Part shown: positions 12,200 through 42,424 of the stretch, piece after piece
How the letters are laid out: every line of letters begins with the position of its first letter
How positions within the stretch are numbered: position 1 is the stretch's first letter
Assembly: GCA_963734545.1 (NCBI GenBank)
Contig: CAVTHO010000010.1
Coordinates: 1-64,000, forward strand
DNA from: an uncultured Spirochaetota bacterium
GTDB taxonomy: Bacteria > Spirochaetota > Spirochaetia > SZUA-6 > Fen-1364
DNA: 64,000 bases
Direction of reading: 5' to 3'
Program-made: the position numbers and the translations under genes
The notes under the pieces: model-generated
What the model saw: only the letters and a program-made list of their open reading frames with translations
Told to the model about the DNA's origin: nothing
Database searches by the model: none

Positions 12200-12216
12200 T
12201 TTCACGGAGGCGTTCG

Positions 12217-13636: not shown

Positions 13637-13675
13637 CGTGAGCCGGCGCAGTCGCAGCGGCAAGGAGAGAACGAT

Positions 13676-15651: not shown

Positions 15652-15673
15652 ATCACGATCCAGGAGGACCCTG

Positions 15674-17029: not shown

Positions 17030-18237
17030 GAAGTGCATGCATAATCGTTTTCTGGGCGGCGATTCTGGCCCCCGTGTTCGCCGAAAACATTTCAACGTAT
17101 GGCACTGTCGAAGGGAAGGTCAGTTTCGATTCTCTTCGGAAGGACTCTCCCCTGCACGCAGGCACGGCAGGGGACTACCTCCTCGACAACACCCTTTTGC
17201 TGAATGCCAATACAAAGCTGCCGGCGGGCAAGGGGGCCTTTGCGGCAATCAACGCGGACGTGCTTGTGCAGGCGCTGATGGGGAGTCAAGACAACCAGGA
17301 GCTGCAGACAGTCTCCCCGACTCTCAACGAAGCCTACCTCAGTGTGCCTCTTGCCGATTTTCTCATTTTTTCGCTCGGCAAGAAGCGCATTGTCTGGGGC
17401 ACCGGGTTGTCCTACAATCCAGCCGACTTCATCAATCCCCCCAAGGACCCGCTCAATCCGCGGCTGGAAAAGCGCGGCGTCCCGTGCGCTCAGCTCGAGC
17501 TTTTCACCGACTGGCTGAGCGTGACCCAGGCGGTGGTTCTCTACGACCAGCTCGATCATTTCGGCTATGGCACAAAGCTCTCCACCTCACGGCTGATTCC
17601 CTCCACGGACATCTCTCTCATCTCTTATTATTCGGCTCGCGCGCAATTCAACCTCGGAGCCTCCATCGATTCGACGCCCTTCGGGGGGGTCCCGGTACTG
17701 GAAAACCTCGCGCTCCATGCCGAAGCAGGCTTCTCTCAGGGCTCGGAGCGCCTCGTGTACGATGAGGCCATGCTTCTTCTTGCCGTGCGCGAGTCACGTG
17801 CTGACTTCTATAAGAGCTTCCTGACCGGACTGCGCTATACCATCCCCGGCTGGGAGACGCTCATCACTGCCGAGTACTTCCATATCGATGACGGGTACAG
17901 CCCTGCCGAGCTCGGCGCGATCCTGGACCATGGGCTCGCCGCAGAGATGGACTATGAACCGGGTCTCATGTGCCGCAACAACCTGATGATTTCGATCATG
18001 CAGCCGCAGCTTACCGAGCGTTTCAATGCCTTTACAGATGCCCTCAGCGTTTCCGCCGCGATGCTTCTCAACCTCGAGGACGCGAGCTGCGTCATCACGG
18101 CGAGGATCGAAAGCTCCGTAATCGCCGACTGCCTGTTCGCGCTGGAAGCCGGATACTTTGCCGGCGGACGCGGCACGGAATACCGAATTTCCCCCAGGGA
18201 ATACTATGTCGCGTTTTCTGCAACTGTCGGGTTTTAG
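17026..18237 (+). CDS. Putative outer-membrane beta-barrel protein
   Basis: Signal peptide; LNEAY..GKKRIVWGTG..NPADFINP motif; C-terminal VGF. Confidence 0.7.
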   Translation: MRSACIIVFWAAILAPVFAENISTYGTVEGKVSFDSLRKDSPLHAGTAGDYLLDNTLLLNANTKLPAGKGAFAAINADVLVQALMGSQDNQELQTVSPTLNEAYLSVPLADFLIFSLGKKRIVWGTGLSYNPADFINPPKDPLNPRLEKRGVPCAQLELFTDWLSVTQAVVLYDQLDHFGYGTKLSTSRLIPSTDISLISYYSARAQFNLGASIDSTPFGGVPVLENLALHAEAGFSQGSERLVYDEAMLLLAVRESRADFYKSFLTGLRYTIPGWETLITAEYFHIDDGYSPAELGAILDHGLAAEMDYEPGLMCRNNLMISIMQPQLTERFNAFTDALSVSAAMLLNLEDASCVITARIESSVIADCLFALEAGYFAGGRGTEYRISPREYYVAFSATVGF

Positions 18238-21540: not shown

Positions 21541-23160
21541 CTACTCGGCCATTCCCGCTCCACGCGCTTTGCCGATGGCTGCCTTCTTGAGGAAAAGAGC
21601 GGGCACAAGGGCGATCAAGGTGAGTGCCGCGGTAACGATGAAGACGTCATCAATGGCATTCACGAAGGACGATTTCGCTACCATACCCTGCATGTAGGCA
21701 AGCGCGACGCTTTTTCCTCGTGCCCCGCCGCCCATGGCTGCTCCTGCCCGCGCAATCATGTTTACGACGGTCGGGTTGGCCGCATTCAGCCCCCAGGACA
21801 GATGCGCGCCATGGAAGGCCTGTCGCGTTGTCAGCATCGAGGTCAGCACGGCAATGCCGAACGAGCTGGATACCCTGCTCACGATATTCGTGATGGCGGA
21901 CGCCCGGCCGATCAGCTCATTCGGGATGTCCGCCATGGCAGCCGTCTGGGCGGGCATCATGGCCAGGGGCATCGTCATGCCCCGGATCATCGTCCATACC
22001 ATGACGGTCGTGGTGGCGGTTGCAAGATTCAGGTTACGGAAGAGAAATGTGATGAACGCGAGAAGAAGGAGCCCGACAAGAACCAGGGGCCGCGGGCCCA
22101 CCTTGTCGAAGAGCCTGCCAATCAACGGCATCATCAGGCCGGAGACGAGAGCGCCCGGCAGCATGAGAAGCCCGGTCTCCATGGCGCCGATGCCGCGGAT
22201 GTTCTGCAGGAACAGGGGCAGGAAAAAAAGACCGGAGAACAACCCGATCGTCGTAACAACGATGGTCAGATTCGCCAGGGTGAAGCTCGCGTATTTGAAC
22301 GCGCGCAGGTCCAGAAGCGGGTTCTCCGAGGTCAGCTCGAGGTAGATGAAGAGGACGAAAGAGAAAAAGCTCACAACGAAAAGCATGACCGTCTTCTCGT
22401 CACCCCACCCCCACGCGGATCCTTTGCTCAGCGCGAGAAGCAGGCAGAAAAGCGCGGCTGCGGACGTGACGGCCCCCGCATAGTCGAGCTTGCCCGGATG
22501 TTTGGACTGGAATTCGGGCAGCATGAAGTACGCAAGGAACATGCCGATCACGCCGATGGGCAGGTTGATCGTGAAGATCCAGCGCCAGTCGACATACTCG
22601 ACAAGGTATCCGCCGAGGGTCGGCCCGATGGCGGGCGCCACGAGCAGTGCGATACCGAAGATACCCATGCCCGCGCCAATCTTGTCCCGCGGCACCATGC
22701 GGTAGATCATTGCCATCGTGGTCGGCATGATCATTCCGCCCCCTATCGCCTGGACCACCCGGGCCACGATCAGAGAGTTGAGGTCCCACGCAAAGGTGCA
22801 GAGGAGCGAGCCGGCCACAAACGCACCCATGGAAAGGATGTAGAGCCTCTTGAAGCCCAGACGGTCCCCCAGCCAGCCGGAAAGCGGCGTAACGACTCCC
22901 AGCGCAAGCAGGTAAATCGTAGAGACCCACTGGATGGAATCCGGGCCCGTGTTGAAAACATTCATCATGGTCGGTATGGCCACGTTGACGATGCTCCCGT
23001 CCAGAATGGCCATGAATGCGCCTATGAGCGCCACGAGCACCGGTCCGAGCCAGTGATACCCGCTCTGCCCGGCTTCCCCGGCGCCCGCGATCCCGCCGGG
23101 CATCACGGCGGGAGCCGTCGGAGCGGAAGGCGCGGCCGCGACCGTCCCCTTCTTTCTCAT
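21541..23160 (-). CDS. emrB: DHA2 family MFS efflux permease (EmrB/QacA)
   Basis: FMAILDGSIVNVAIP, GWLGDRLG, PAIGPTLGG, WRWIFTINLPIG. Confidence 0.9.
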   Translation of the reverse strand: MRKKGTVAAAPSAPTAPAVMPGGIAGAGEAGQSGYHWLGPVLVALIGAFMAILDGSIVNVAIPTMMNVFNTGPDSIQWVSTIYLLALGVVTPLSGWLGDRLGFKRLYILSMGAFVAGSLLCTFAWDLNSLIVARVVQAIGGGMIMPTTMAMIYRMVPRDKIGAGMGIFGIALLVAPAIGPTLGGYLVEYVDWRWIFTINLPIGVIGMFLAYFMLPEFQSKHPGKLDYAGAVTSAAALFCLLLALSKGSAWGWGDEKTVMLFVVSFFSFVLFIYLELTSENPLLDLRAFKYASFTLANLTIVVTTIGLFSGLFFLPLFLQNIRGIGAMETGLLMLPGALVSGLMMPLIGRLFDKVGPRPLVLVGLLLLAFITFLFRNLNLATATTTVMVWTMIRGMTMPLAMMPAQTAAMADIPNELIGRASAITNIVSRVSSSFGIAVLTSMLTTRQAFHGAHLSWGLNAANPTVVNMIARAGAAMGGGARGKSVALAYMQGMVAKSSFVNAIDDVFIVTAALTLIALVPALFLKKAAIGKARGAGMAE

Positions 23161-23591
23161 TCCTGCGTCTCCTCACGCTCCAGGCAGTTGAAAACCGCGG
23201 TGAGATCTGCCGTCAGTCTCTCGATCAGGTCCGGCGGAAGCTGGCGGAAGACCTTCACCATGCTTTTCTCGCTCGCCTGCGTCACGTGGCGGATAAGCTG
23301 ACGGAGCTTCGGGGTGCCCTTCATCACCACGGCCCTCCTGTCCTCGGGGTCCGACTCGCGCTCGAGCCACCCCCCTGCGGTCAGCCGGTCCAGGATGCCC
23401 GTGAGCGTGCTGGGGGGAACGCCGATCTCCCCCCCAAGCTCCAGCACCCTGCAGCTGCCCTTGCGGTGCATCTTCCACGCAACAAGGAACTCCGCGGCGG
23501 AAAGGCCTTCCCGCTGCGCAAAGGGCGCAAGGCGCTTGAAGAGTTTCCTGTAGATCTCCGTGAAAAGCTCGATCAGTCTTATCTCGTTCAT
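23157..23591 (-). CDS. MarR family transcriptional regulator
   Basis: STLTGILDRL..GWLER..DPEDRR. Confidence 0.9.
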   Translation of the reverse strand: MNEIRLIELFTEIYRKLFKRLAPFAQREGLSAAEFLVAWKMHRKGSCRVLELGGEIGVPPSTLTGILDRLTAGGWLERESDPEDRRAVVMKGTPKLRQLIRHVTQASEKSMVKVFRQLPPDLIERLTADLTAVFNCLEREETQE

Positions 23592-23603
23592 CCATCTGCC
23601 TTG

Positions 23604-23630
23604 TACGAATACGAAATATTCGTATCCGTA
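23604..23630. promoter_or_regulatory. Probable MarR operator
   Basis: TACGAATACGAA-ATA-TTCGTATCCGTA, 12-bp arms with one mismatch, between promoter and marR start. Confidence 0.75.
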
Positions 23631-23639
23631 GTATTCGAG

Positions 23640-23668
23640 AAAATAATGATTCTTCGCCGTACCGTCAA
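23640..23668 (-). promoter_or_regulatory. sigma70 promoter of the marR-emrB-tolC operon
   Basis: Minus strand TTGACG-N17-TATTTT. Confidence 0.5.
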
Positions 23669-23737
23669 GCGTGGAGAGAGCGCGGCCGGGGAGGCTGCGC
23701 GCGGCTCATGGGGCTCTTGGCATTCCGCGTTCCCGGC

Positions 23738-26700
23738 TCACGCGGCGGTTGAGGCCCTCTTCCGGATACGTTCCCAGCGCGTGAGCATCTGCCGGGCCAC
23801 CGATGCGAAGGTTGTCTGGCTCGCGGGGGAGGATGCCGACGCCCGGGCGAGCGCGGAGAAGCATTTCTCGAGCGCTTCCCAGCTTTCCTTATCCAGCGAC
23901 ACCGAGCCGCTGGCCCGCGTTGCAGGGCGGGAAGCCGCGGGGGGAGCGGAACCGGCGCCTGCTCCGGGAGCGGGCCGGATCGCCCGGGCCTGCTTGAGCG
24001 GATCGAGCTCCGCGGACAGATCGAGGGTGATCTCGTAGGGCTCGAATACCCGGATCGGCTCGGCGATGTTCTTGACTGTAATACGTCCGATTTCCCGGGC
24101 AAGGATCGCGTCCTTGACCTTGTCATACACGCTGTCCGAGACGAGTATCGACCCCGGTCGGGCGGATGACTCCAGCCGCGAGGCGATATTGACGTCGTTG
24201 CCCAGCACGTCGCCGCCCGGTTTGCGTATCACCTTTCCGGCATGTATCCCGATGCGGATCACCACCCGGCTGTTCTCCTCTCGATAGCGATTGAACCGGA
24301 CCATGGATTTCTGCAGGCGGATGGCGGCGAGCACGGCGTCCAGCGGACGCCGAAAGACGATCATGTGCCCGTCGCCCATACGCTTGACGAGCTTCTCCCC
24401 TGTGATCATCCACGTGCGCGAGGAGCACTGCCTCGTACTCCTGGATCAGCGCGGAAAGCTGCAGGGGGGTGAGGAGCTGGGCCTTCTTGGAATACCCCTG
24501 AATGTCGGAGAAAAACATCACCAGCTCCTGGATATGCTCGCGTTCGAACTGAAAAGCGGTGCGCTCCGTGCGCAGGTCCACCACCGGCGTCTCGTCGCCG
24601 TCCTGTGGATCCTCTTCCATGGCGGCGCCCCGCATGTGGAGCGCCATGGCAAGCACACTTTCCCGCAGTGCAGGCTCCTCCGCGCCGAGAAGCAGCTCCC
24701 GCAGCGGCCCGTGCAGGGACGCACTCCCCTGGGTGAGGAGGCGCGAGAGGGCGGGAAGCAGCGGCGCGCGCAGCGTACCCCGCAGGGCGCGCAGCGTCCC
24801 GGGCCGTCTCCGCTTCGGTCCCTGCGGTGAGGGTGTCGCCGAGAACCTCGGGGGCGTAGTCGTCACCCAGTTTCCACAGGATGACCGCCGCCGCCCTGCG
24901 GCTGTGCGCATGCTTTCCGCGCAGGATGCGGAAAAGGAACTCCGCCATGCCCTCGCGATTGGTGACGAGGCCGCCGGAGACCCGGTGCTCCAGGATGGCG
25001 AGCGCCACGGCTTTCTGCGAATCACTGCCGCTTGCCGCCAGCTCCTTGAGGCTTTCGGAGATGTCCAGAAGCACCTTCTCTCCCAGGTAGGCTGCCGCGG
25101 AAGCGCGCACCTCCGACGTGGCGGAATCGGCCACCCGGGCAAGCAGGGCACGGGCAAGCTCCGCGCTGGCCGTGGGGGGCACCGCGCTGATCGTTTCGAT
25201 GGCATTCAGCGTCACATAGGTGTCGTCCAGCGAGGCGAGCAGTCGGGCGGCCGACGGCTCCAGAAGCTGAGGATCCAGCTCCTTCAGCAGGTGAAGCGAG
25301 GTGATGGCGAGCACCTTGCTGGCGAGCGGCAGCGCGAGGCATTCCCGGCACGCCGCGGTCGAGAATACCCTGTCGACCCGGGCCAGCGCGAGCAGCGCGG
25401 CCTCCGCGAGCCGGAACAGCTTCTCCTGCCGCGCCCAGGAGAAGATGCCCCTCATGGTGAGGGATGCCTGGCCGCCCGGCGCGGGCATGAGGAATACCGA
25501 TGCAATCCTGATGGCGCCGCAGACGCGAGAACACGAGCCCCTTTCCGGTTCTTGCCAGCGCAATCTCGCGCGCCACCAACGCGATGCCCGGCCCGCGGGG
25601 TTCTTGATGAGGTCTGCCAGGGCGGTATACCCGTCGAAATGCCGCACCTCCACCCGCGCGGCTGTGGCCTGAAGGGCCTTCAGCAGTTCCGGGGCTTCCG
25701 CCGCGCCCGCCCCTTTGAGCCAGCGGACGAGCGCGGCCTTGAACTCCTCGTCGCAGTAGTACTCCACGTATTCCTTCGCGCGGGTGATCAGCCAGCCCAG
25801 CTCATGCGTGTCGCTGGACACGTGCCTGCCTTCCGCGGCGAGCTGCTTGTACAGCTCTCCCACCCTGACGAGAGCGCGCACCCGGGCCTGCGGAGTGATT
25901 TCTCCGCGACTCCAGGCAGGAGCTGCAGACGCTGGAGGGCCTGCGTGACCTCGTCCTCCAACGCGGGGCTCGCTTCGACGAACCCGGCCATGCGGTCCAC
26001 GAGGTCCCCGGGAATCTCCGCGTGATGCGGCTCGGTGCCGATCGCGGCGTAGGCGGCGCGCCGGAGCTTCGAGCTCCGCGTCGGAGAGCGCAAGGGACAG
26101 CAGGGCGGCAGACTCGGGGAGCTGCTGCCGAGCGGCAAGCGTGACGAGCATAGCGCGGCCCCGGGGGGACAGGCGCGCATGAACAGGCGCGAAGGACGCG
26201 ACGGCGCGGGGGAGCAGCGCCGGGTTCTCCGACGCGGAGAGAAGGACCTGGTGCACTATTTCTTCACGGGTGTCCGTGAGGAGCTCCTTCAGGGCCGGCT
26301 GCGCGCCGATCCTGAGGAGCAGCCCTGCCGCATGCGCGCGCGCCGACGGGGACGCCATGTCTTCCCGTATCGTCTGCCGGAGGAGGTCGATCGTTTCGCT
26401 TGCCGCCGGGGCCGCTTCCGCCAATGCCTCGAGAATTTCCCGGCGCACGCTCTCGCCGCGCGCGGTCCTGACGAACTGCTCCAGCAGCGCGACGGCGCGG
26501 GGATGCCGAATCCTCCCGAGGGCGCGCGCCGCGCCGCGCCGTACTCCCTCTTCTCCGCTCGTGATCAGCCGCGCCAGAAAGGGGACGCTGCGCGGATCGG
26601 CGAGCGCGCCCACCGCCTCGAGCGCGGAAAACGCGACGGGCAGCCGGGGAGTCGAAGAGGTCGGCGTGCAGCCACTGCAGGCTCTTTTTCTGCCCATCGA

Positions 26701-26809
26701 AGGCGGCGAAGATCCTGTGCGTGGTGATCAGCGGCTCGACCTCCCGCAGCGGCATCTCAGGGACACGCGCGGGGACTGGCGGAGACTGGAGCGGGGATGC
26801 GGTTTCCAT
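23738..26809 (-). CDS. HEAT-repeat protein with C-terminal class III adenylate cyclase domain, frameshifted
   Basis: HEAT-like ALEAVGAL..VRRGAARALGRI; cyclase VMFFSDIQGYS, LVKRMGDGHM, IRIGIHAG, DVLGNDVNIASRLES, spread over several frames. Confidence 0.8.
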
Positions 26810-26822
26810 GTGAGCGCCCTGC

Positions 26823-27340
26823 CTATCGAACGGCGCCGGCGAGTGCCGGTTCCGCCGCGGTGGTGTCCAGCGAGCCCAGCGCCGCGCGCTCCTCCATCGT
26901 GAGGACCGCGTCCGCGTTCAGCAGGATGATGAGCGTGTCGTCGCGCTTGCCTATCCCGGCGATGAACTCCTGGGCGAATCCGCCGTGCACGGGCGGCGGC
27001 TCGATCTGGTCCTCGGGATGCGCACCACCTGGCTGGCGGAGTCCACCACCATGCCCACGAGCCGGCCTTCGACTTCCACCACGATCACCCGTGTCATCGC
27101 CGTGGCTTCCCGGGGCTCAAGGCCGAACTTGTCACGCAGATCGACTATGGGAATCACGTCTCCGCGCAGGTTGATGATGCCCTTCACGAATGAGGGCGCC
27201 TTGGGAAGCCAGGTCGTCTCGCGCACCCGGATGACCTCTTTCACCCGCAGGAGCTCCATGCCGTACTCCTCTTCCCCCACGGAAAAGCTGATGAACTGAC
27301 GCAGGTTTTCCGTTTCCTTCCGTACCTTCTTCGAATCCAT
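26823..27340 (-). CDS. cheW: Chemotaxis coupling protein CheW, one frameshift
   Basis: QFISFSVGEEEYG..VKEVIR, GIINLRGDVIPIVDLR; C-terminus FIAGIGK..LIILLNAD in a shifted frame. Confidence 0.9.
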
Positions 27341-28437
27341 GATCGTTCCTCCTCACGGCGGACTTCCCGCCGGTTCATTGCGTACCCCGCTCTTCCCTGG
27401 ACGAGCCAGGTCGAGGCGGGTGCCGCCAGAAACACCTTTGTGATTTCGGGATCGAATTGCGTTCCCGCGCGGCGCATCACCTCCTCCGCCACCGTGGAGA
27501 ATGGGAGCGCCGCGCGGTACGGCCTATCCGAGGTCATGGCATCCAGCGTGTCCATGATGGAGAATATGCGGGCATGCAGGGGGATGCGGGTGCCCCGCAG
27601 CCCGTGGGGATAGCCCGAGCCATCGAAGCGCTCGTGGTGCGAGAGCACCACGTCGGTTGTGTGCGCAAGGAACTCGATATTACGTATCATCGTGTATCCC
27701 ATGACCGGATGCTTCTCGACGATGAAGCGCTCCTCCCGCGTGAGCGGTCCCGGCTTCAAAAGGATGCTTTCGGGCATGCCGATCTTGCCGATGTCATGGA
27801 GGTAGGCCCCCCATTTCAGGTTCTTCAGCTCGAACGGGGAAAGGTCGAGCAGGGACCCGAGCCTCACGCAGTTCTGCGACACCCGCGCGCAGTGGTCCGC
27901 CGTCTCGCTGTCCTTGAGGCTGAGCGCGGCGCCCAGCGCGAGCACCGTCATGTCGTGCACCTCGTCGATCTGCCGCGAAGAGCGGGACAGTTCCTCTGTC
28001 TTCATCCGCACGAGGGTCTCCAGTGTCCGCGCCTGGGCGCGCAGGCGCGCGCGCGACTTCCATTCGTCGATCGCCTTGTCGACGCGCTGGAGAAAATGGC
28101 CGACCGTGAAGGGCTTCGTGATGAAATCGATGGCGCCGCGGCGTATCGCCTCGATGGCTGTCTGGATGTCGCTGCTTCCGGTCATGACGAGCACGAGGGG
28201 CGACTGCGGACCGTCGTCTCTGATGAGGGAAAGCCCGGACCCGTCGGGGAGGGCGACATCGATGAACAGGAGGTCGTAGTGCCCCCGCTCCAGGCGCTCT
28301 CGCGCCTCGGCAAGACTGGATACCGCGTCGCATGCCAGGTTCCGCACCTTCAACATTGCCACGACCAGCTCCTGTATCGCTGCCTGATCCTCGAGGACCA
28401 GTATCCGGGGCGGCCGCAAGAGATTATCGTTTTGCAT
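27241..28437 (-). CDS. Response regulator with HD-GYP phosphodiesterase domain
   Basis: REC (ILVLED, FIDVALP, KPF) + HDIGK and HHERFDGSGYP; 3' end uncertain because the ORF overlaps cheW. Confidence 0.9.
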   Translation of the reverse strand: MQNDNLLRPPRILVLEDQAAIQELVVAMLKVRNLACDAVSSLAEARERLERGHYDLLFIDVALPDGSGLSLIRDDGPQSPLVLVMTGSSDIQTAIEAIRRGAIDFITKPFTVGHFLQRVDKAIDEWKSRARLRAQARTLETLVRMKTEELSRSSRQIDEVHDMTVLALGAALSLKDSETADHCARVSQNCVRLGSLLDLSPFELKNLKWGAYLHDIGKIGMPESILLKPGPLTREERFIVEKHPVMGYTMIRNIEFLAHTTDVVLSHHERFDGSGYPHGLRGTRIPLHARIFSIMDTLDAMTSDRPYRAALPFSTVAEEVMRRAGTQFDPEITKVFLAAPASTWLVQGRAGYAMNRREVRREEERSWIRRRYGRKRKTCVSSSAFPWGKRSTAWSSCG

Positions 28438-29336
28438 GAGTCTCGTTCCGTTTCCATTGGAGTGTGGACGCATCCGCTCGTGAGTCTGCTCCGCGACCAC
28501 CCGATAGATCGGCGCATGGAACAGGGATGCGTACTGGAATACCTTGCTGAATCCACCGACCGATTCCGCGTGCCCGATGAAGAGATTACCGCCGCTTGCC
28601 CGCCAAATCCCGTCCACCAGTCTTTCCTGGGTGGCCTTGTCGAAATAGATCATCACGTTCCGGAGAAGATCACATCTATACCCTCACCGGGGGGGTGGTT
28701 ATTACGAGGTTAACGACCTTGAACTCACGCGCGCCCCCAGCTAGTCCCGCACCTGGTGCCGCCGTCTTCGGTCGGCCGGAAACACTGTTTCAACAGCTCG
28801 GGGGACACCAGCTTGAGCGACCGGTCGTGGTAGACGCCGCCCGGGCCCGGGTGATCACCGTTGTGCTGATGTCGGTGCCCACAATCTCCACGTCGCGCGC
28901 CCCGCAGGCCCTGGCGGCCCGGTCCGCCACGATTCGCAGCGTGTACGCTTCTTCACCCGTTGAGCAGCCCGCGCTCCAGATCCGCACCCGGTGTCCCGCG
29001 CGGAACAGCTCGGGAAGCACGTGTTCCTCGAGCGCCGTAAAATGGCTGCCCTCCCTGAAGAAGTACGTCTCGTTGGTGCTCACCGCGTCTATGAAGTGCC
29101 GCATCTCTGCCGGGGCATCTTCTCCGGAACGTCAGGAGCCCGTAGTAATCCTCGTAGCTTGCCAGATCCAGGTGGACGAGGCGCTTGCGCAGGCGGTTGG
29201 AAACGAGGATCTGTTTGCCGTCACGCATATTGATGCCGGTCTTCAGGTAGATCAGCTTCCGAAACCTGTCGAAGGTCTCCTGAGAAATGACGGGCATCAT
29301 GGCCGCAGGAACAAGTGTGCCGGGAGGCGCGCTCAT
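28438..29336 (-). CDS. cheR: Chemotaxis methyltransferase CheR, frameshifted
   Basis: STNETYFFRE, RIWSAGCSTGEEAY, GTDIS, RNVMIYFD, LFIGHAES. Confidence 0.85.
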
Positions 29337-29818
29337 TCAGTCACCCTTTTCCACGGGAGGGCTGTGAGCTTTTTCACCGACACCCGGCCCGTAGCATTGT
29401 CGTACACCACGGTGCGGCCCGACGTCCCGCCCGTGTCCTCGAACACGATGGGGATGCGGTTCTCCTGCAGAATTCGCCGCGAGGTTTCCACGTTCTGGTC
29501 CCCGATGGAGGCGAGCGTCGTGTCTCCCATCGGGAACATCTGCGCGCCGCCGACAAGCAGCGCCTGCAGAGAAGACTGCCTCCCGCCGATGCCTGCCAGA
29601 CGTCTCAGCAGCGCGGGGATGGCCGAGTCTGCATACTTGCCCGTCGAGGCGTCATCACGGAGGCGAGCGGGCAGCATGATGTGCGCGAGACCGCTCACTC
29701 CACGTTCGAGGTCCCGCAGGATGATGCCAACGCACGATCCGAGGATGGTCTTGAGCCCGCGCGCGTCGCTCACCACATCCATTCCGGCCATCTTCACGTT
29801 CACGATGTTCTCCGTCAT
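29333..29818 (-). CDS. cheD: Chemoreceptor glutamine deamidase CheD
   Basis: LGSCVG, LAHIMLP, KYAD, GGAQMF, EDTGG..GRT. Confidence 0.9.
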   Translation of the reverse strand: MTENIVNVKMAGMDVVSDARGLKTILGSCVGIILRDLERGVSGLAHIMLPARLRDDASTGKYADSAIPALLRRLAGIGGRQSSLQALLVGGAQMFPMGDTTLASIGDQNVETSRRILQENRIPIVFEDTGGTSGRTVVYDNATGRVSVKKLTALPWKRVTE

Positions 29819-32590
29819 GACCTTTCCCTCATCCCCGCGCCCGTGGCCAGGGCCGTCCCGTGGTCGTCCGCGAGCTCGTGCAGGAGCAGTCGGAAGGAGT
29901 CCGGCTCGAGAAAGAGCAGCTGGTGGCACACCACGGTGTGCATGTCGGCGCCGTAGATCACCGCTTCCGTAAGGAGGATCCTGTCACCCGGCTGGTTGAA
30001 CCGGGCCAGGACCGAGTCGATGACCGGCAGGCACATGTCGATGCTGATCTCCGGCACCTCCGGGCAGACCTGCAGGCCCGCGGCGTCCGCGATCGAGTTG
30101 ATGAAGCAGGCAGCCAGGATGTTCCCCATCTCGGAGAGGCCCGATTGATCCACGGCGGACAGGTCCGTACGTGTGCCGGGCAGGGGCGGCCATGCAGCAT
30201 GTCGTCGATGGAGAGAAGGCTCTTCTCGGGAAACACCAGGAGCACGCCGCCGCTGATGCCGCCCCCGATTCCCACGTAGATTCCGCCCACCGTGGCCTCT
30301 TCACCTCTCCCATGAGCTCGGCGACGTCCGCGAGCGGCATGAGCCGCGACTCCGGAAAGCTCACACGTATCTCCTGACCCATGAGCTGGGAAAGGCTGAC
30401 GGAGGCCTGGATGGCCGCCGCCATTGTGCAGCTCCTCGAGCCGCCCGCCCCTGCTGCCTGTGACGGCGGAGGCAAGATCGTCCACAGGCTGTTCAGGCGC
30501 CAAGGAGGCCTCGGGAGCAGGGACAGTGACGGACTGGTTTTCCGTCAGCGAATCGACGACTCCTGCAGCCGGGCGGAACGAATGGATCGGCCGGCATGCA
30601 GTCCGATGAGGGACGGCACGTCCACGATCAGGGCAATCGTGCCGTTTCCCAGGATCGAGGCGCCGATGAAGCCGGCCACCTCCCGGTAGTGACGGCTCAG
30701 GCTCTTGATGACGACCTCCCGTGTGCCGATGATCCTTTCGACTTCGAGACCGATCTTCGTGCCCTCGAACTCGACGATCACCACCGGGCGACGGGGAGCC
30801 TTGCCGGCTTCGCCGCGATCCTGCCGCCGAGGACGCCGGCCAGCTCGACGAGCGCCAGCACTTCGTCGCGGAGCATGATGACCCGCAGTGCCACCGTCCG
30901 CAGGGTCGATTCCTTCCCTTCCAGGATCTCGCGGACCGCGGACAATGGGATGGCATACACCGAGCCCGCTGTCTCCACGAGGGCCGCCGTAATGATGGCC
31001 ATGGTGAGGGGGAGCGTAATGGTGACGACAGTGCCTTTGCCGGAAACGGATTGCACGCGGACATTCCCGCCCATCTCCTCCACGCCGCGTTTCACCGCGT
31101 CCATTCCGACGCCGCGGCCCGAGATGTCGGTCACTTCCCGCGCCGTGCTGAAGCCCGGCAGGAAGATGAAGCCGAGAATGCGGTCCGTGCCAGCGGTCTC
31201 CGCCTCGTCCCGGCTGATCAGACCCTTCTGCAGCGCCTTTTTCAGTATCGCTTCCCGATCGAGCCCGCGGCCGTCATCCGATACCTGGATGCAGATGTGG
31301 TCTCCCTCCTGGTACGCTGCCAGCCTGATGGTCCCTTCAGGACTCTTGCCGCGCGCCGCGCGTTCTGCCGCGTTCTCCAGCCCGTGATCCACCGCGTTGC
31401 GCACGAGGTGGACGAGGGGCTCGCCGATGCGGTCGATCACTTTCTTGTCGATCTCGGTCTCCTCGCCGGAGACCTCCAGGACAACGGTCTTGCCGCTCGC
31501 CTTCGACAGGTCCCGCACCACGCGGCGGAATCGATCGAAAACCCGGGAAACGGGGAGCATCCTCGCCTTCATGATGCCGTTCTGAAGCTGCCGCGCGATG
31601 GCGGACAAGCCTTCGGTTTTTTCTTCCAGCTCCGCAACGAGCGGGCTTCTTCCATATGCCTGGCGAAGAGACTGGGCCGTCGCGACGAATCCCGAGTTGT
31701 GGATGACCAGCTCTCCTACAAGGTTGAGCAGGGTGTCCAGCTTTTCCACGGACACGCGCACCACTTCATCTGGCTGGATGCCTACACGGTCGGCGCGCCC
31801 GACTCCTTTGCGGCCGCGGGCAGCGTCTGCTCGCAGCGGCCGACCGGAATTGGCGCCTCGGGAGAGGGCAGGCGGTCACCTGGTCCACGGCAACCTCGCG
31901 GGCGAGCGCCTCGGGACCCGCCGCACTTTCGACCGTCACCGTATAAAGGAAAGGCCCGTCTCCGTCGCGGAGGGCTCCCCGGTGAAGGCTCGGTGGCCGA
32001 CGACGCGTGCCCAGCCGCTCAAGCCTGGCCTTCACGAGGAACGAACGCAGGTACGCCTCACGCGGCTGGCCTTCGATTCGGATCTCCAGCCGGCACGACA
32101 CACGCGGAGCAGCGTGCTGCGGTACCCCGCGGATTTCGCGCGCAGACGCAGGACGGCCGGCGAGACCGCTGGCAGGACCGCGCTCGGTCCGCGCACCGGC
32201 GCTTCCCGCTCCGTGCGCGCGCTCAACCGGCTCATGAGGCGCCTCCGTCTCACTGTTGAAACCGGCGCCTCCGTCAGGTGAGCCGACCATCGACTTGCAG
32301 GAGGTCCAGTCCTTCGAAGAGGACTTCACCCAGCCGCGATGTCATAGGCCCGCGTGCCGTCCCGCACATCGGCCAGCGACGACTCCAGGCAATGCGCAAG
32401 CTTCTGCAGCATGTCAAAGCCGATGAACCCGGCTGAGCCCTTCAGCGTATGGATTGCCCGGAACATACCGTTCAACCGCTCCGGCTGCCCGGGATTCCCA
32501 TCGAGGGCCAGGAGGCATTCCTCCCATTCCCTGAGCGAGATCGCTCGCCTCTTCGCTGAAGATCGCCAGGTATTCCGATTTCTTTTCCAT
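29815..32590 (-). CDS. cheA: Chemotaxis kinase CheA with apparent C-terminal CheC-like domain, frameshifted
   Basis: Hpt FRAIHTLKGSAG; LVHLVRNAVDHG; DISGRGVGMD; P5 GASILGNG; followed by ASVSLSQL..LSEMGNILAACFINSI CheC motifs. Confidence 0.8.
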
Positions 32591-32629
32591 TTCAGGTTTC
32601 TCCCTGTTTCCCTGGTCCCTGTCCGCCGC

Positions 32630-33154
32630 CTAAGCTTCGGACAGGGCTCCCACGAATGATTCCGTTTCCTGCAGTGTCTCCTGCTCCTCCACCGCAATGC
32701 TGATCTCGATGGGGCCATACTGGGTAATCAGTCCCAGTACCAGCGCGGGCTTGGGCACAAGGTGCACGCTCAGGTTGGTGCCCGTGGCAATCGCCGGGGT
32801 GGTGATGTTCAGTATCTGGTCGCGCCTCTGGTTCAGCAGCGCGGTGGCATTACCGGTGATCATGTTCGCCACCTCGCCCAGGCAGTCCAGGAACATGATC
32901 TTCTTTTCCTGCGGGGACTTGCCTTCCAGCATCTTGTCCACCAGCCGCGCGGCGAGGGCGCCGTCCAGGCTGTAGACGATCTGGCCGGTCAGAAAGCCGT
33001 AGATGCCGATTATGATGGACACCCCGAAGGAGGGCTCCACCTTGGCCTTGTACGACAGGTGCCCCCGGCGGACTTCGATGCCAGTGATCTGGTTGACCAC
33101 CCGCATGGCGGCCTCGACAAACGGATTGACGTGCTTGGCGTTGATCTTTGTCAT
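32630..33154 (-). CDS. cheX: CheY-P phosphatase CheX
   Basis: VNPFVEA, GEVANMITG, ITTP. Confidence 0.9.
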   Translation of the reverse strand: MTKINAKHVNPFVEAAMRVVNQITGIEVRRGHLSYKAKVEPSFGVSIIIGIYGFLTGQIVYSLDGALAARLVDKMLEGKSPQEKKIMFLDCLGEVANMITGNATALLNQRRDQILNITTPAIATGTNLSVHLVPKPALVLGLITQYGPIEISIAVEEQETLQETESFVGALSEA

Positions 33155-33170
33155 TGTTTTGCCCTTTCGC

Positions 33171-33534
33171 TTACTGCAGCGCCTTGTGCACTGCCGAAAT
33201 AATCCGCTCTTTGGTGAATGGCTTCACCACGAAATCACGCACGCCCAGCGGCGATGGAATCCAGGAGCATCTTCTCCTGGCCAAGCGCGGTGACCATGAC
33301 GATGCGGGCATTGGGATCGGCTGCCAGGATGTCCCGCGCCGCCTCCAGGCCGTCCTTCACCTTCATGGTGATGTCCATCGTGACCAGATCGGGCTTGAGC
33401 TGGGTGTACTTTGTCACCGCCTCGGCCCCGTTCGTCGCTTCCCCCGCGATCTCGAATCCGCCGGGAGTCAGCGTGTCCTTGACGATCGTGCGCATGAAGT
33501 TCGCATCATCGACTACCAAGATTCTCTTTCCCAT
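33171..33534 (-). CDS. cheY: Single-domain response regulator CheY, one frameshift
   Basis: ILVVDDANFMR, PDLVTMDITM, VTALGQ; DFVVKPF in a shifted frame ending at TAA 33171. Confidence 0.9.
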
Positions 33535-33591
33535 TTCTCGTACTCCTTTCAAAGCGGCAGGCGGGGGATCCCGGGAGACCCCCCTGCCCTC

Positions 33592-35648
33592 CTATGCGAT
33601 TTTCTCCACCCGTTCCGGGGTGTCGTTCTCAAGTGACGTCCCGTCCTCCGCAGAGACCCTGAATTGCGCGACGAGCTTCTGCAGCTCCTGCGCCATGCCG
33701 GAGAGCTGCTCCGTGGACGAGGACATCTGCTCCGCTGCGGTCGCCGCCGCCTGCGTCAGCTCGTTCACGTTCTCCACGGCCTTGCAGACCTGCCGTGCGT
33801 TGGTGGTCTGCTCCTCGGTGGCGGCGGAGATGCTCTGGCTCATCTCGTTGACGTTCGCCAGCGCCGCGGCCAGCTCCCGGATCGCGGCCACCTGCTGCTC
33901 CATCGAGTCGGACAGCTCCACGATCATGTCCTTGACCTTCTGCGAGGCGGTCGCGGATCTGCTCCATCGACTCCTGCGACCCCTGGGCCATCTCGACGCC
34001 CCTCTGTGACGTTCTTCACGCTCTCCTTGATCAGGATCTCGATCTCCTTGGTGGAGGTGGCGCTGCGCTCGGCGAGCTTGCTCACCTCGTCGGCCACGAC
34101 CGCGAACCCGCGGCCGTGCTCTCCCGCCCGCGCGGCCTCGATGGAAGCGTTCAGCGCCAGGAGGTTGGTCTGGTCGGCGATGTCGGAGATGACCGTCACG
34201 ATCCCGCCGATCTTCTCCGAGCTCTCGGCAATGAGGTTGATCCCCTGGACCACGTCCGCCGACCGCCTGCGCTCCCTCGTCCGCGTTGTCCACGGACGCT
34301 CCGGCAAGCCCGGAGATCTCGCTCAGGTTGCGGGAGATCTCGTCGATGGACTTCTGCACCTGGGTCATCGAGCCGGTTCCCTGCTCTACGGCGGCGGCCT
34401 GGCTCTGGGCGTGCTCCGCTCACCTGGTCTACGGAGGCCGTCAGCTCCTCGACGGATGCGCTCGTCTCCTCCAGGGTGGAGGCCTGGCTCTGCGCGCCCT
34501 CGGCCAGGGACTGCGAGCTGGCGGACATCTCTTCACTGGACGCGGCCACCTGCTCGGCGCTGTCCTGGATGGTCGCCACGATGGAGCGCAGCCTCGTGGA
34601 GGTCTGGTACAGCGCTGCCGCCAGCACGCCGATCTCGTCGTTCTTGCCGAGCAGCCGCGCGTCCACGTCCTCCCTCAGGTCCCCTTCCGCCAGGTTGGAG
34701 AGGAGGTCGACCATCTTCTGGATCGGATTGGAGATCGAGCGGGCGAACAGCGAGAAGACGAATCCGCCCGCGGCCAAACCCGCCGCCATGATGGCGATGA
34801 TCGAGAGGAGCAGATTCCGGAAGGCCTCCTTGCTCTGGCTGAGCTTCAGTCGTCTCCTCGACAACGGCCGCCACCAGCGGCTCCACCTTGTGGATGGCCT
34901 CCCTCATTCCTCCCTGCAGCCCGTCGTTCTCCGTCAGCCCGATCTGAGCCTGGACCTGGAGGTAGTGCTGCACGGCCGCTCCGTACTTGTCGATGTCCGC
35001 CAGGAGCGCCGAGCGCGTCGGCTCACCCAGTCGTCCTGCCCCCGCGCGCAGTCTTTCCAGCTCGCCGGTGAGCTGCTGAACGTACTGATCGTCCGCGCGA
35101 AGGAGGTAGTCCTTCTCATGACGCCGCACGCTCAGCAGCGATATGGTGAGGGCAGCGTTCCCGGCCGCCGAGAGGCGGCTCTCGATGTCATGGGCCGCGG
35201 TGCGCCAGTCGCCCTCGGCCCCCCAGTCGGCAAACCCCCGCTCCCGATAGGCGGCCACCAGCTTGGCGAATGACTGGTTGTAGCCGTCGACCGCCTCGCG
35301 CAGATCGCCGATCGTCTGCCGGGTAGCGGCCTGGTGAAGCGCGTCGAGCTGGTCGATTGCCTTCCGCATGCCGGCAACCGACTCGGTGTGCTTGGCGAGG
35401 TTGGCGCTCGTTCCCTTCTGGTAGAACTCCGCAGTCCGGATGTCCCGCAGCTGGAAGTCCTTTTCGTTCCGCCGCGCCTGCAGCATCCAGATGGCGATCT
35501 CGTTCGCCAGTGAATGCGCCGTGCTCGCCCTGTCGCTTCTCTGGTAGAAAAAGACCAGGCAGGCGACCCACGTAGCACCGATCAGGACCGTAAGAAACAG
35601 AAAAATCCTCAGAAGCTTGACGAATATCGTCGTGTTCTTCTTTGGCAT
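33592..35648 (-). CDS. Methyl-accepting chemotaxis protein (periplasmic helical sensor, HAMP), frameshifted
   Basis: [13 protein letters not shown] / RRHEKDY sensor repeats, [37 protein letters not shown]. Confidence 0.9.
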
Positions 35649-35680
35649 ATATAGCTCCTTTCTTTCCACGAGGCCTTAAT

Positions 35681-35696
35681 AGCAAGGTGTGTGCCA
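35681..35696 (-). promoter_or_regulatory. sigma54 (-24/-12) promoter of the MCP-che operon
   Basis: Minus strand TGGCAC-ACACC-TTGCT, 32 bp upstream of the MCP start. Confidence 0.85.
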
Positions 35697-35935
35697 ATCG
35701 ACGGATTGTCGTTTAATTTTCTATCAGGTAAAGAATTATTTTTTGATACCGAACCTTGGGGCCGATATGCCGGTCCTGCAGTCAGCTTGCAGGATTCTCA
35801 TAACTCTTTATGCTGATGTGAATTAAGTCAAATGGCTTGGACAGGCAAAGTGCGTTTTGTTCCAGGGGTTTCGAAAACGAAGAGGGCCGGGCAATCGGCG
35901 CGCCCCCCTTCTGTTCACGGCAGGCGCCGCTTGCC

Positions 35936-37510
35936 CTACGTGTCTGACGCGGCTGCCGAAGGCAGCACGATGCGGAAGAGGGTTCCGCTGCCGGGGGAGC
36001 TTTCGACGTGGATGCGTCCCCCGGCAGCTTCGATGATCATCTGCACCATCGACAGGCCGAGCCCTGTCCCCACGCCTTCCGGCTTGGTGGTGAAAAACGG
36101 CTCGAAAATCCTCGCCCGCGTCTCGCCGTCCATGCCGGTGCCGCTGTCCCGAATCTCGAGGAAGACCTGCCCGGCGCCGCGGGAGAGAGATGGATCATCG
36201 CCCGTCCTTGCGCTGATCGTTATCGTTCCTCCGTCGGGCATCGCGTCCCGCGCGTTCAGGACGAGATTGCGCACCACCTGGTCGAGCTGTGACGCCGCGA
36301 TGTCGACCAGGAAGCTCTCAGGCTCCAGAATGCAAGCACGAGGGACTGACCTTCACGCAGGTGCTGCCGGAGGCTGGACTCCGCCTCGCGCAGAACCGCG
36401 TTCAGCTCGACGCACACATGCGCCTTGTGCGGGGCACTGCCCATTGTGAAGAGCTGATGGACCATCTTGCTGGCCTTGGCAGCGGCAAGCCGGATCTCCT
36501 GGGCGTCCGCCCGTACCGCCTGCGTCACCCCTTCTTCGGAGGCAATCAACTCCGCATAGCCGCTCACGACGGAAAGCGTGTTGTTGAAATCGTGCGCGAG
36601 CCCGGGCGGCGAGACGCCCGACCGTTTCGAGCCTGTGTGCCCGGGCGAGCTCCAGCTCCATCTGCCGGGGTACCGTCACGTCGACGAATCCGCCTTCCGC
36701 GAATCCGTCGTTCGTGGACAATCGGAACGAGCCGACGATCACGAAGCTTCTCCCGCCCGGGGTTCGGCCGCGCAGCTCTTCGTCGCGCAGCTCGCCCTGT
36801 TCCCGAAGCCTGCGGATCGTTTCCGCCTTTCCTTCAGCGTCCAGCAGATCGAAAAAGCACACGTGCTCGGGAACCGCGGAGGAGTCGGACCCCATGAATC
36901 GCAGGAATGCGTCGTTGCAGTAGCGGATCCGGAAGGTGTCCTCGTCCAGCAGCACGTATGGAGTCGGCAAGCTCCCGATCAGCCTGCGGTACTCGCTCCT
37001 CGTCTGCTCCAGCATGTCGATTACGCCAGTGGAGGCCGAGAGCTCAGGCGCCCGGGAACCGGCAGTGATCCGATCGGAAAGCAGGAAATTCCGGATCAGC
37101 CTTCCCTTGGAGCTGCCGGAGGGGCTGGCGAGAGCCTTCCTGACAACGGCGATGAGCCGTTCCCTGTCGATGGGCTTCACGAGGTAGTCGACCACACCTC
37201 CTGCCGTTCCCTCCGCGTAGTCCCTGATCTGGGAAGAGGCGGTCACGACGATCATTCGCGGCCGGTTCAGCAGAGGGACGCTCTGTCGAATGATGTCATG
37301 TCCCGTGACATGAGGCATATTCAGATCGAGGATCACGAGGCTGAACTTCTCCCGTGCCAGCATGGCAGGGACGTTTCTGCTTTCCGCGCACGTGCGCAGA
37401 TTGCTGTAGCCTGCTGATCGAAGGGTGATGCTCATCGAGGTGAGCGCGTTCTCCTCGTCGTCCACGATCAGCAGGGGTTGCTGTGGATATAGTGCACCAG
37501 GAATCATCAT
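35936..37510 (-). CDS. Hybrid REC-PAS-histidine kinase, frameshifted
   Basis: LLIVDDEE, ILDLNMP, PAS, AHDFNN H-box, NLVLNARDA, FEPFFTTK..GTGLGL. Confidence 0.85.
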
Positions 37511-37521
37511 GACTCGACTAA

Positions 37522-37537
37522 TGCAAGGAATGTGCCA
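37522..37537 (-). promoter_or_regulatory. sigma54 (-24/-12) promoter of the hybrid kinase
   Basis: Minus strand TGGCAC-ATTCC-TTGCA. Confidence 0.8.
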
Positions 37538-37702
37538 GCTGACTATGCAATCTATTTCCTTATCTGGTAAATATCTAAGAATAGAGCAGGCTTCAACAAG
37601 TGAAGGGGCGAAAGATGCTGATGACGGAGGACATTCTCTCTATCTCTTTGGCATGGAATGAGTTACGTGCGAAATGCGCCGCGGCCGAGAGTGCAAAATG
37701 TC

Positions 37703-39120
37703 CTAGGGTTTCCTGTTGAGCCGGCGGTTCAACGCGGTGCGCGTCAGGCCCAGAAGCCGCGCCGCGGCATCCTGGTTTCCTTTCGAACGGCGGAGGGATT
37801 CCTCGATCAGGAGGTTGCCGGCTTCCCTCAGCGTGGGCAGAGTCTGGCAGGCGCCGAACAGATTCTCCCCTTCCGCCGTGCATGATCCCGCGCCCTTCTC
37901 CGCCGCGCTTACCGCCCTTTCACCCATCGCATTTCGGAAGCTCCCGAGCGACAAGACGCGTGACTGATGACGCACCACCGCGTCGAAAATCAAACCCTCG
38001 AGCTCGCGGATATTGCCGGGAAACGGATAGCTTCGAAGCAGCGGCAGGAGCTCCTTCGGGCACCGTGGGCATGCTCTTGCCGACGGCCTTGGACGCCTTG
38101 TCGAGGAAGTGATCGACCAGGGCGGGAAGGTCGCCCGCTCTCTCCCGCAGCGGCGGTATGCGGATATGGTGGGACCGCAGCCGGTACAGGAGGTCCTTGC
38201 GGAACTTGCCCTCCGCCGTCGCTTGCGCGATATCGAGGTTGGTGGCGAACACGAACCGCGCGGTCGTCGGCCGCGGCCTGTCGGTGCCCAGCGGATAGTA
38301 CTCCCTCTCCTGCAGGAGCCGCAGGAGCTTGATCTGCGATTCGGGGGCAAGGTCCCCGATCTCGTCGAGGAAGAGCGTCCCTTCCTCCGCCTTGGCCACC
38401 ATCCCTTCGCGTGCCGAGTCCGCGCCGGTAAAGGCACCCTTCACGTGCCCGAAGAGGGTGTCCGCGAACAGGGTGTCGTCCAGCCCGGCGACATTCACGG
38501 GAACGAAGCTCCCCGTTCGTCCGGCTCAGCGAGTGGATGGCACGGGCGATCAGCTCCTTGCCGACGCCCGTCTCCCCGGTGATGAGCACGGGAAGCGATG
38601 TCGGGGCGATGGCCTCCGCGTAGCGGAAGATCGCGAGCATCGAGGGGTCCGGCGTGATGATTTCACGAAACGCCTCGGGGTGCGCCGGTCCCGTGGCAAG
38701 GAGACCGTCGCGCAGGGATCCTGACCTCGCGCTCGGTCTCCCACTTCTCGATCGCGTGCCGCACGCTGGTGACCAGGCGCGTGCGGTCGACGGGCTTGGC
38801 AGGTAGTCGAATGCTCCGGCCCGCATGCACCGAACCGCGGTGTCCAGGTCACCGGTTCCCGTGGCCACGATTACCGGGGTCTCGGGCCGTTCCTCCAGGA
38901 TCGTCGGCAGGAGGTCGAGCCCGGAGATCCGGGCAGATTGAGGTCCAGGACGACGGCGGCGAAGGACCCCGCGCGGACCTCGTCGCCAGCCGGCGTCCCC
39001 GTCCGCGCACTCGACGATGTTCGTGATGCCGTCCAGGAGCAGCGCCGCGCGCACGCGAGGCGCGGATCTCCTCCTCGTCGTCCACGATGAGCACGGGGTC
39101 CGCGGGGAGGGGCGGCTCAT
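37703..39120 (-). CDS. sigma54-dependent NtrC-family response regulator (REC-AAA+-HTH), frameshifted
   Basis: VLIVDDEE, GETGVGKE, FGHVKGAFTGA, LFLDEIGDL, FRKDLLYRL, FPGNIREL, AARLLGL. Confidence 0.9.
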
Positions 39121-42100: not shown

Positions 42101-42389
42101 GGATCGCCGTGTCCGTTCCCGCATAGGCGGTCATGGTGACGCAGAGGGACTGCGGTGCGACCTTCAGCAGTGTCTGTACGAGCTCCACTCCGCTGTCCTT
42201 CCCGAGCCTCACGTCCACCAGAAAGACCTGCGGGGGAACATCCCGGGCCCGGGCCAGCGCGTCACGCGCCGTGGCCGCGGTCGTCACATCGTAGCCTGCG
42301 CCTTCGAGCACATCGACGAGGCTTGCGCAGAAATCCGCGTCGTCGTCGACGATGAATACCCTTCGCTTTTCCCGCTCATTTCTGCTCAT
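39117..42389 (-). CDS. REC-GAF-multi-PAS sensor histidine kinase, frameshifted
   Basis: VFIVDDD REC, GAF-like segment, about 4 PAS/PAC repeats (HDVTERRRAEEALRESE etc.), AHEINNPN, LEQVVINLVTNA, PFFTTK. Confidence 0.85.
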
Positions 42390-42424
42390 GCCTTCTCCGC
42401 GGGATCCATCCCGTGCTCCTCTTG

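Follow-up and report, generated by a model that had tools for sequence, protein, structure and literature searches.

A putative sigma-54-driven spirochaete operon that joins a chemosensory pathway with two second-messenger enzymes

Introduction

Only a few models, such as Wsp, Chp, Dif and Che7, represent chemosensory pathways whose output is not the flagellar motor. Chemosensory control of cyclic di-GMP (c-di-GMP) is already known from Wsp, which has a CheB (WspF) and a hybrid of CheA with a receiver (REC) domain (WspE), and the Chp pathway of Pseudomonas aeruginosa sets the level of cyclic AMP (cAMP) via the class III cyclase CyaB. In Xanthomonas, the REC-HD-GYP protein RpfG of the RpfC/RpfG pair is activated by phosphorylation and degrades c-di-GMP, and CheY7 of Myxococcus is reported to bind the Che7 HEAT-repeat protein. 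The Wsp system of Pseudomonas has been described as a Che-like pathway leading to WspR, a REC-GGDEF protein (PMC8846402), with WspA as a 40H receptor (PMC2577667), and the Che7 cluster of Myxococcus as a che cluster tied to a HEAT-repeat protein (PMC9040617). Here we describe a cluster of nine genes on the minus strand of contig CAVTHO010000010.1 (assembly GCA_963734545.1) from an uncultured Spirochaetota bacterium, in which genes for a predicted c-di-GMP phosphodiesterase and a predicted adenylate cyclase stand among che genes. The cluster, with its promoter, covers positions 23738-35696 of the 64,000-nucleotide stretch that was analysed (the window).

No paper on a che operon with both an HD-GYP protein and a HEAT-repeat cyclase was found in open full texts, subscription papers and supplements lying outside this coverage. 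The reading favoured here, with confidence evenly poised, is that of one sigma-54-driven operon in which a chemosensory pathway of the Thermotoga maritima/Bacillus subtilis type is joined by two second-messenger enzymes as conserved cargo, and in which the frameshifts that break several of the genes are assembly errors.

Results

Gene content and organization of the cluster

A total of 122 stop-to-stop pieces were scanned with Pfam across the window, including 60 minus-strand pieces of 23160-35797; with a G+C content of ~63%, spurious long open reading frames (ORFs) are plentiful in this DNA. Read from 35648 to 23738 on the minus strand, the genes encode a methyl-accepting chemotaxis protein (MCP), CheY, CheX, a CheA-CheC fusion, CheD, CheR, a REC-HD-GYP response regulator, CheW and a HEAT-repeat adenylate cyclase. 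This is the order given in an initial annotation made from the sequence and its ORFs, and every domain was recovered by Pfam at its place and in the same orientation. The tight packing on one strand noted there was seen as well, neighbouring genes overlapping or nearly abutting: the CheA stop overlaps the CheD start as ATGA, an overlap also joins the end of cheD to the start of cheR, and the remaining gaps are at most 60 nt.

The transmembrane chemoreceptor (33592-35648; all genes of the cluster on the minus strand) was recognized by HAMP, MCPsignal and a weak HBM-like sensor in the piece 33595-35675. It is followed by cheY, a single REC domain (33171-33552; Response_reg E=1.9e-18, piece 33238-33591), an intact cheX (32630-33154; E=1.6e-13, piece 32633-33223) and the gene of the CheA-CheC fusion (29815-32590), with Hpt in the piece 32329-32727, H-kinase_dim, HATPase_c and CheW in 30548-31875 and a CheC-like end in 29818-30300. 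Further downstream lie an intact cheD of 161 amino acids (aa) (29333-29818; E=6.1e-28, piece 29336-29983), cheR (28500-29336; CheR_N and CheR in 28793-29336, the CheR C-terminal end in 28500-28683), the intact REC-HD-GYP gene encoding a predicted c-di-GMP phosphodiesterase (27241-28437; Response_reg and HD_5 in 27244-28437) and cheW (26823-27340; E=5.4e-31 and a second piece, within 26826-27352). The last gene (23738-26809) encodes a HEAT-repeat/class III adenylate cyclase of ~1020 aa, with HEAT_2 at the start of the piece 24409-26727 and Guanylate_cyc in 23741-24445. The core of a Che pathway (MCP signalling domain, CheW, CheA domains and a CheY-type receiver) is thus complete, with Pfam scores above the curated cut-offs on frameshift-separated pieces. 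Within the operon no kinase gene other than cheA was found, and scans of the window gave no Rfam or tRNA match.

An exact match to the sigma-54 (RpoN) consensus TGGCAC-N5-TTGC lies at 35682-35696 (minus strand), and ~35 nt further downstream the MCP gene starts with the ATG at 35648, preceded by the ribosome-binding site AAGGAG. A second exact match, at 37523-37537 (minus strand), stands 13 nt upstream of the ATG of a REC-PAS-histidine kinase gene (35936-37510, minus strand) that is adjacent to the operon on its upstream side. Both matches are therefore just upstream of start codons, and two in the window compare with an expectation of 0.09 (at least two in 1 of 100 shuffles). A neighbouring, frameshifted gene for an NtrC-type sigma-54 activator with REC, Sigma54_activat and HTH_8 domains (37703-39190, minus strand; Pfam pieces 37706-38437, 37923-38525 and 37993-39327) is a candidate regulator of the operon, which is probably RpoN-dependent and under two-component control. 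Scans for sigma-70 promoters and for terminators were uninformative: promoter-like sites numbered 2 (1.1 expected) and terminator-like sites 10 (7.8 expected).

Conserved linkage of the two enzyme genes with che genes

The sizes of the longest contigs recorded for HD-GYP homologues (120) and cyclase homologues (72) coincided in 23 cases, five of them at 11 kb or less, while 18 sizes were common to HD-GYP and CheA, 10 to CheA and the cyclase, and 6 to all three lists. This is far too frequent for chance and points, indirectly, to linkage of the close orthologues. More distant relatives came from a scan of genome contigs, which kept, among the matches listed, only those with an HD-GYP protein of 47% identity or less. 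The best locus among them, L001 from a Spirochaetota metagenome-assembled genome (MAG), encodes an HD-GYP protein of 47% identity; its contig begins at cheB and continues in one direction through genes for ComFB, REC-HD-GYP, CheW, MCP, Hsp70, DnaJ-HEAT, GrpE and a HEAT-cyclase of 1014 aa. The window CheW and the CheW of this locus share 61% identity. Because the contig sizes coincide and L001 keeps the genes together, the association of HD-GYP, CheW and HEAT-cyclase appears to be old and conserved, and the syntenic conservation with che genes that had been named as a check on the initial annotation was found in the 23 shared contig sizes and the linkage in L001. HD-GYP genes also lie beside che genes in other phyla, in Thermoanaerobacterium (L042), Devosia (L060) and Nitrospinae (L021).

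The ComFB-domain gene of L001 (1160-1465) lies between cheB and the HD-GYP gene; no ComFB was found in the window. ComFB proteins have been described as a family of receptors for c-di-GMP/c-di-AMP (PMC12448109), and a ComFB gene next to a phosphodiesterase gene in L001 fits a role in c-di-GMP signalling. In the same locus, genes for Hsp70-like, DnaJ-HEAT and GrpE proteins (5684-8444) separate the MCP and HEAT-cyclase genes; the title of a Myxococcus study ties an Hsp70-like protein to Dif signalling (PMC4319316). In L057, a locus from an Actinomycetota MAG, a CheB-like gene comes after a REC-HD-GYP gene (10001-12610), and no other che gene of the window set was detected in that locus.

The REC-HD-GYP response regulator

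All 120 HD-GYP homologues listed consist of REC and HD_5, with lengths of 294-414 aa and identities of 62-99%, and those with a named source are mostly 'Spirochaetia bacterium' MAGs. In an alignment of 24 sequences, which includes a 99% identical protein from a separate 18-kb contig (P0001), the HD and HHExxDGxGYP motifs and the acidic pocket, phospho-acceptor Asp, Thr and Lys of the receiver were invariant in 24/24. The protein is accordingly predicted to be an RpfG-type c-di-GMP phosphodiesterase with a receiver.

At the end of the orthologues the HD-GYP frame has no stop, and a tail of ~33 aa runs into cheW (27241-27345, minus strand). The tail is probably real, since it recurs, with substitutions, in P0001 from another contig. 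At the other end, the C-terminal end of CheR and the start of HD-GYP share one open frame without a stop between them (28437-28520, minus strand). A CheR-REC-HD-GYP fusion was considered as the form of the family and rejected, since none of the 120 homologues listed, all stand-alone proteins of 294-414 aa, has a CheR domain; a frameshift may also account for the lack of a stop. A search of the N-terminal extensions of HD-GYP homologues for remains of the upstream gene gave nothing informative.

The HEAT-repeat adenylate cyclase

In the cyclase, HEAT_2 lies at the N-terminus, the HEAT solenoid measures ~740 aa, and the class III cyclase domain is placed towards the C-terminus. Of 76 matches found in a search with this protein, 73 are members of a family of ~1000-1080 aa (HEAT_2 and Guanylate_cyc) or their fragments. 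The family is narrower than the HD-GYP group; it is nonetheless diverse and not a single lineage, since 32 of the best 150 representatives in a profile search of 1.84 billion (50% clustering) matched more than 800 of the 1022 profile positions.

In class III cyclases, an Asp pair binds the metal, a Lys/Asp pair sets the substrate, and an Asn and an Arg act on the transition state. In an alignment of 62 HEAT-cyclases, D771 and D815 (the metal-binding type of pair), D869, N876 and R880 were invariant and K811 was conserved in at least 90%, a set that we take to be the adenylate (ATP)-specific one of class III. After frameshift correction, the window cyclase carries every one of them, and by this measure the enzyme is catalytically complete. 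The solved structures nearest to the cyclase domain are bacterial cyclases, including P. aeruginosa CyaB (3r5g, E=5e-14), and the PDB matches show the N-terminus to be similar to HEAT-like alphaRep designs. For the middle of the protein, Protein Atlas gave HEAT-like clusters at 0.86-0.88, below 0.9 and hence a lead only.

Receptor, kinase and chemosensory class

The MCP is laid out as a first transmembrane segment, a helical periplasmic sensor of ~250 aa, a second transmembrane segment, HAMP and a signalling hairpin of ~44 heptads (44H), whose N- and C-terminal arms count 157 aa each; candidate methylation sites are visible as Glu/Gln pairs. A second intact MCP of 721 aa is encoded at 45484-47646 (minus strand), probably also with ~44 heptads (178 aa past the hairpin tip).

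The CheA comprises one Hpt domain, a P2-like region, a dimerisation domain, HATPase, a CheW-like domain and a CheC-like C-terminal domain. Pfam, the alignment and the orthologues agree in placing the CheC-like end, and no receiver, at the C-terminus. The fusion aligned from end to end to a 915-aa orthologue (P0121, residues 1-915) with 72.7% identity and without an in-frame stop. Full-length CheA homologues among the matches listed (643-1065 aa, best 79% identity) are as common as HD-GYP homologues, and a CheC domain is precomputed in 33/120 of those listed. In the window the CheC-like end scored 19.3 bits, under the 22-bit Pfam cut-off, while in two orthologues the domain was above it (P0147, 27.0 bits; P0151, 28.4 bits); its best PDB match was T. 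maritima CheC (1xkr, E=0.0024). The motif E-x2-N-x22-P, which defines the active site of CheC/CheX phosphatases, was read by eye in the translations, with one occurrence in CheX and two in the CheC-like end of CheA, of which one straddles a frameshift and is of uncertain spacing.

These features bear on the proposal, made in the initial annotation, that the pathway is of the alternative-cellular-function (ACF) class and distinct from the spirochaete cheA-cheW-cheX-cheY flagellar operon. F1 systems go with 44H receptors; 44H is the T. maritima type, occurs also in Dif-like clusters and is not diagnostic. It is further given for F9 (PMC9321776). In published work on CheA proteins, multi-Hpt and receiver-bearing CheAs are mainly of the ACF or type IV pilus (Tfp) classes, CheC/CheX fusions are found on F1 CheAs of Leptospirae, for which a dual kinase/phosphatase role was proposed, and the T. 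denticola CheA has a dimerisation domain extended by ~50 residues (PMC10782961). With one Hpt, no C-terminal REC, a receptor of ~44 heptads and a type of fusion published as F1, the present system does not bear out the ACF assignment. The distinction from the F2 order cheA-cheW-cheX-cheY was upheld: the dimerisation match of 67 aa is short and equals the full length of the Pfam model, gene content and order differ, and T. denticola CheA was absent from the 10 PDB matches to the window CheA at E<=1e-10. CheX, CheD and the CheC-like end of CheA are F1 traits that are present; cheB, another, was found nowhere within the window. The system appears to be of F1/Dif-like stock, for which 'ACF' would be a statement on function.

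A possible, if rather unlikely, alternative is to be considered, namely an ordinary F1 flagellar chemotaxis operon in which phosphorylated CheY (CheY-P) acts on the motor only, cheB is encoded elsewhere, and the HD-GYP and cyclase genes are neighbours on the same transcript, with an indirect influence on motility and no place among the outputs of the kinase. The CheA-CheC/CheX fusions of Leptospirae F1 CheAs (PMC10782961), the receptor of ~44 heptads and the second intact MCP at 45484-47646 would suit such an operon, as would the CheA core, for which T. maritima CheA scored highest in the PDB (1b3q, 284 bits versus 259 for E. coli), and the CheB encoded in L001, L042 and L060. The HD-GYP protein, however, has its own receiver with an intact phospho-acceptor, its gene is flanked by cheR and cheW within the che set, with CheA as the only kinase of the operon, and the linkage of HD-GYP and cyclase with che genes reaches relatives as distant as L001. 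Moreover, no flagellar genes were found among the Pfam pieces of the 64-kb window.

Absence of cheB and the role of CheD

The absence of cheB, on which the initial annotation laid stress, was borne out within the window: none of the 122 pieces contained CheB_methylest, and tblastn with the CheB proteins of L001 and L042 matched only REC domains, the best match to a methylesterase part having E=0.84. The further idea that the REC-HD-GYP protein stands in place of CheB had to be given up. In L001, cheB and comFB lie directly upstream of the HD-GYP gene, and cheB is also found in the HD-GYP-linked che loci L042 and L060. Because L001 carries cheB beside the genes of HD-GYP, CheW and HEAT-cyclase, the HD-GYP protein is best regarded as an added output and not as a substitute for CheB. 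The lack of cheB may be local to the operon, with the gene elsewhere on the 217-kb contig. Demethylation by CheD, also suggested initially, has a precedent in T. maritima CheD, which is described as a deamidase and methylesterase (PMC3579733); by this analogy the window CheD would be a deamidase and possibly also an esterase.

Frameshifts within and around the cluster

A feature absent from the initial annotation is that the coding sequence of six of the nine genes runs through two to four reading frames, broken by ~31 one-base frameshifts in 11.9 kb. These were placed with a protein-to-DNA aligner that allows frameshifts, guided by intact homologues, and with a homologue-free codon-usage Viterbi method. 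The MCP has 5 shifts (34856, 34420, 34260, ~34004 and ~33952 in the frameshift-aware alignment), CheY 1, CheA-CheC up to 13, CheR 4-5 (guided by the CheR of L042, L060 and L021), CheW 1 (near 27012) and the HEAT-cyclase 7, while CheX, CheD and HD-GYP have none. The CheY shift was placed at 33249 by the Viterbi method and the other frame translated; past it, this frame encodes the C-terminal end with the conserved Lys-Pro-Phe motif. Three of the 13 CheA-CheC shifts, which fall within 30 nt of one another in the weakly conserved P2 region, may be alignment noise. Over ~1035 residues of the HEAT-cyclase, three guides agreed on 7 shifts at 62-67% identity without an in-frame stop, and the codon-usage Viterbi recovered the same seven.

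Assembly consensus errors are held to be considerably more probable than real decay, because the five guided reconstructions contain no in-frame stop, every event is of one base, conserved columns are largely kept and unrelated genes are split too. Of columns conserved at 95% or more, the window sequence keeps 233/245 in the HEAT-cyclase and 235/241 in CheA, as against orthologue medians of 98.4% and 99.1%. The other split genes of the window are a cellulase-like gene (1440-2625), MacB (49491-50952), a PFL-like gene (61971-63999) and the neighbouring kinase and NtrC-type genes.

That the operon is a decaying pseudogene array, with true mutations in a lineage for which the pathway has become dispensable, is judged distinctly improbable. 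Such decay would suit the sheer number of shifts in 11.9 kb, next to long window genes that have none (such as a 4.2-kb ORF at 5686-9891), and their independence of homopolymers: 4 of the 31 sites lie near a run of at least four, with 3.8 expected, so that there is no enrichment and no signature of a particular sequencing chemistry. Neither CheA nor the cyclase has an intact copy of more than 90% identity among the matches listed, and the shifts are already in the public record, where the broken ORF of 763 aa is listed with a 217,059-bp contig as its source. Set against this, the guided reconstructions showed neither nonsense codons nor indels exceeding one base nor large deletions, and the retention of conserved columns at 95-97.5% is hard to square with the substitutions that would be expected beside ~30 fixed indels. 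Unrelated genes near and far (cellulase-like, MacB, PFL-like, NtrC-type, kinase) were hit as well, and indels that ignore repeat tracts are untypical of spontaneous mutation. Assembly error stays the preferred explanation, though it does not account for the independence of homopolymers, the lack of intact close copies or the very uneven density: ~1 shift per 400 nt at 23.7-39.9 kb and 7 shifts at 0.2-2.6 kb, whereas the 21 kb at 2.6-23.7 kb have 0-2. Across the window, the hot stretches are 200-2600 and 23700-39900, and the cold ones 2643-23678 and 42428-64000.

Other genes of the window

Upstream of the operon, a dense run of signalling genes (38852-44226, minus strand), several of which are frameshifted, encodes two PAS kinases, one of the triple-PAS and one of the 7TM-PAS kind, as well as a receiver protein, and a multihaem cytochrome gene (44342-45481, minus strand) comes next after the second MCP gene. 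Two similar sets of genes for a LolA-like protein, an ABC ATPase and a MacB-FtsX permease lie on the plus strand at 12548-18234 and 49491-54856, the first in a stretch of lower G+C content (56-58%).

Discussion

Compared with the closest described systems, the present cluster shares single features with each. As in Wsp, an operon-encoded response regulator is a c-di-GMP enzyme (PMC8846402); Wsp, however, makes c-di-GMP, which the present system is predicted to degrade, and it is without CheC, CheD, CheX and a cyclase. The Pil-Chp/CyaB system of P. aeruginosa likewise has a class III cyclase, and CyaB is among the PDB matches of the window cyclase domain (3r5g), but CyaB is encoded outside the che operon and lacks a HEAT domain. 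By composition (44H MCP, CheA, CheW, CheY, CheC, CheD and CheR), the nearest published analogue without CheB is the Dif-like cluster of Geobacter, which the window matches in gene content and in its receptor arms of 157 + 157 aa. The periplasmic domain of Dif receptors, in contrast, measures 3-10 aa versus ~250 aa in the window MCP, and Dif clusters are without CheX, a CheA-CheC fusion, HD-GYP and a cyclase. The same kinase architecture is found in the F1 CheA-CheC/CheX proteins of Leptospirae, which are described as proteins and not as operons (PMC10782961); the homologues of the present CheA come from Spirochaetia MAGs. The Myxococcus HEAT-repeat protein has no enzymatic domain, whereas the HEAT solenoid is here fused to a cyclase, and RpfG takes its input from a hybrid sensor kinase, whereas the present HD-GYP protein would be fed by an array of CheA and receptors.

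On the basis of domain content, gene order, conserved catalytic residues and linkage, the following course of signalling may be proposed. The transmembrane MCP with its large periplasmic sensor would control the CheA-CheC kinase via CheW, and CheA would hand phosphate to the two receivers of the operon, CheY and REC-HD-GYP. By analogy with RpfC and RpfG, phosphorylation would switch the HD-GYP phosphodiesterase and so alter c-di-GMP. CheY-P would be kept short-lived by CheX and the kinase-fused CheC domain, and its target could be the flagellar switch or else the HEAT solenoid of the cyclase, by which cAMP synthesis would be tuned. For adaptation, CheR would methylate the receptor and CheD, probably kept in check by the CheC domain, would act as a deamidase and possibly as an esterase, any CheB being encoded elsewhere. 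Conserved linkage, together with the Che7/HEAT precedent, suggests that the cyclase may be under the control of the pathway.

Several points weigh against the favoured reading of one operon with two enzymes as conserved cargo. Phosphotransfer from CheA, control of the cyclase and binding of CheY to the HEAT solenoid are all steps that we infer from sequence, the last of them by a single analogy, Myxococcus Che7; synteny of the close orthologues was deduced from coinciding contig sizes and not read from their DNA. The cheB genes of related loci, the possible presence of cheB elsewhere on the contig, the lack of intact close copies and the placement of the frameshifts, as given above, belong on the same side. 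A more far-reaching proposal seems doubtful and quite unlikely to us: that one array sets two messengers, HD-GYP lowering c-di-GMP and CheY-P docking on the HEAT-cyclase, that adaptation is without CheB, a CheC-held CheD serving as sole esterase/deamidase, and that the whole forms a new alternative-function class widespread in uncultured Spirochaetia.

What the cluster adds to the known models is a predicted c-di-GMP phosphodiesterase and a predicted cAMP synthase inside one che operon, linked across many uncultured spirochaetes. The window also illustrates how, on a long contig with a locally high density of errors, such operons can escape gene callers. Should both enzymes be driven by the kinase, the operon would offer a compact and testable example of chemoreception, c-di-GMP and cAMP acting on one another, and this would assign a function to a family of ~1000-aa cyclases with a giant HEAT domain.

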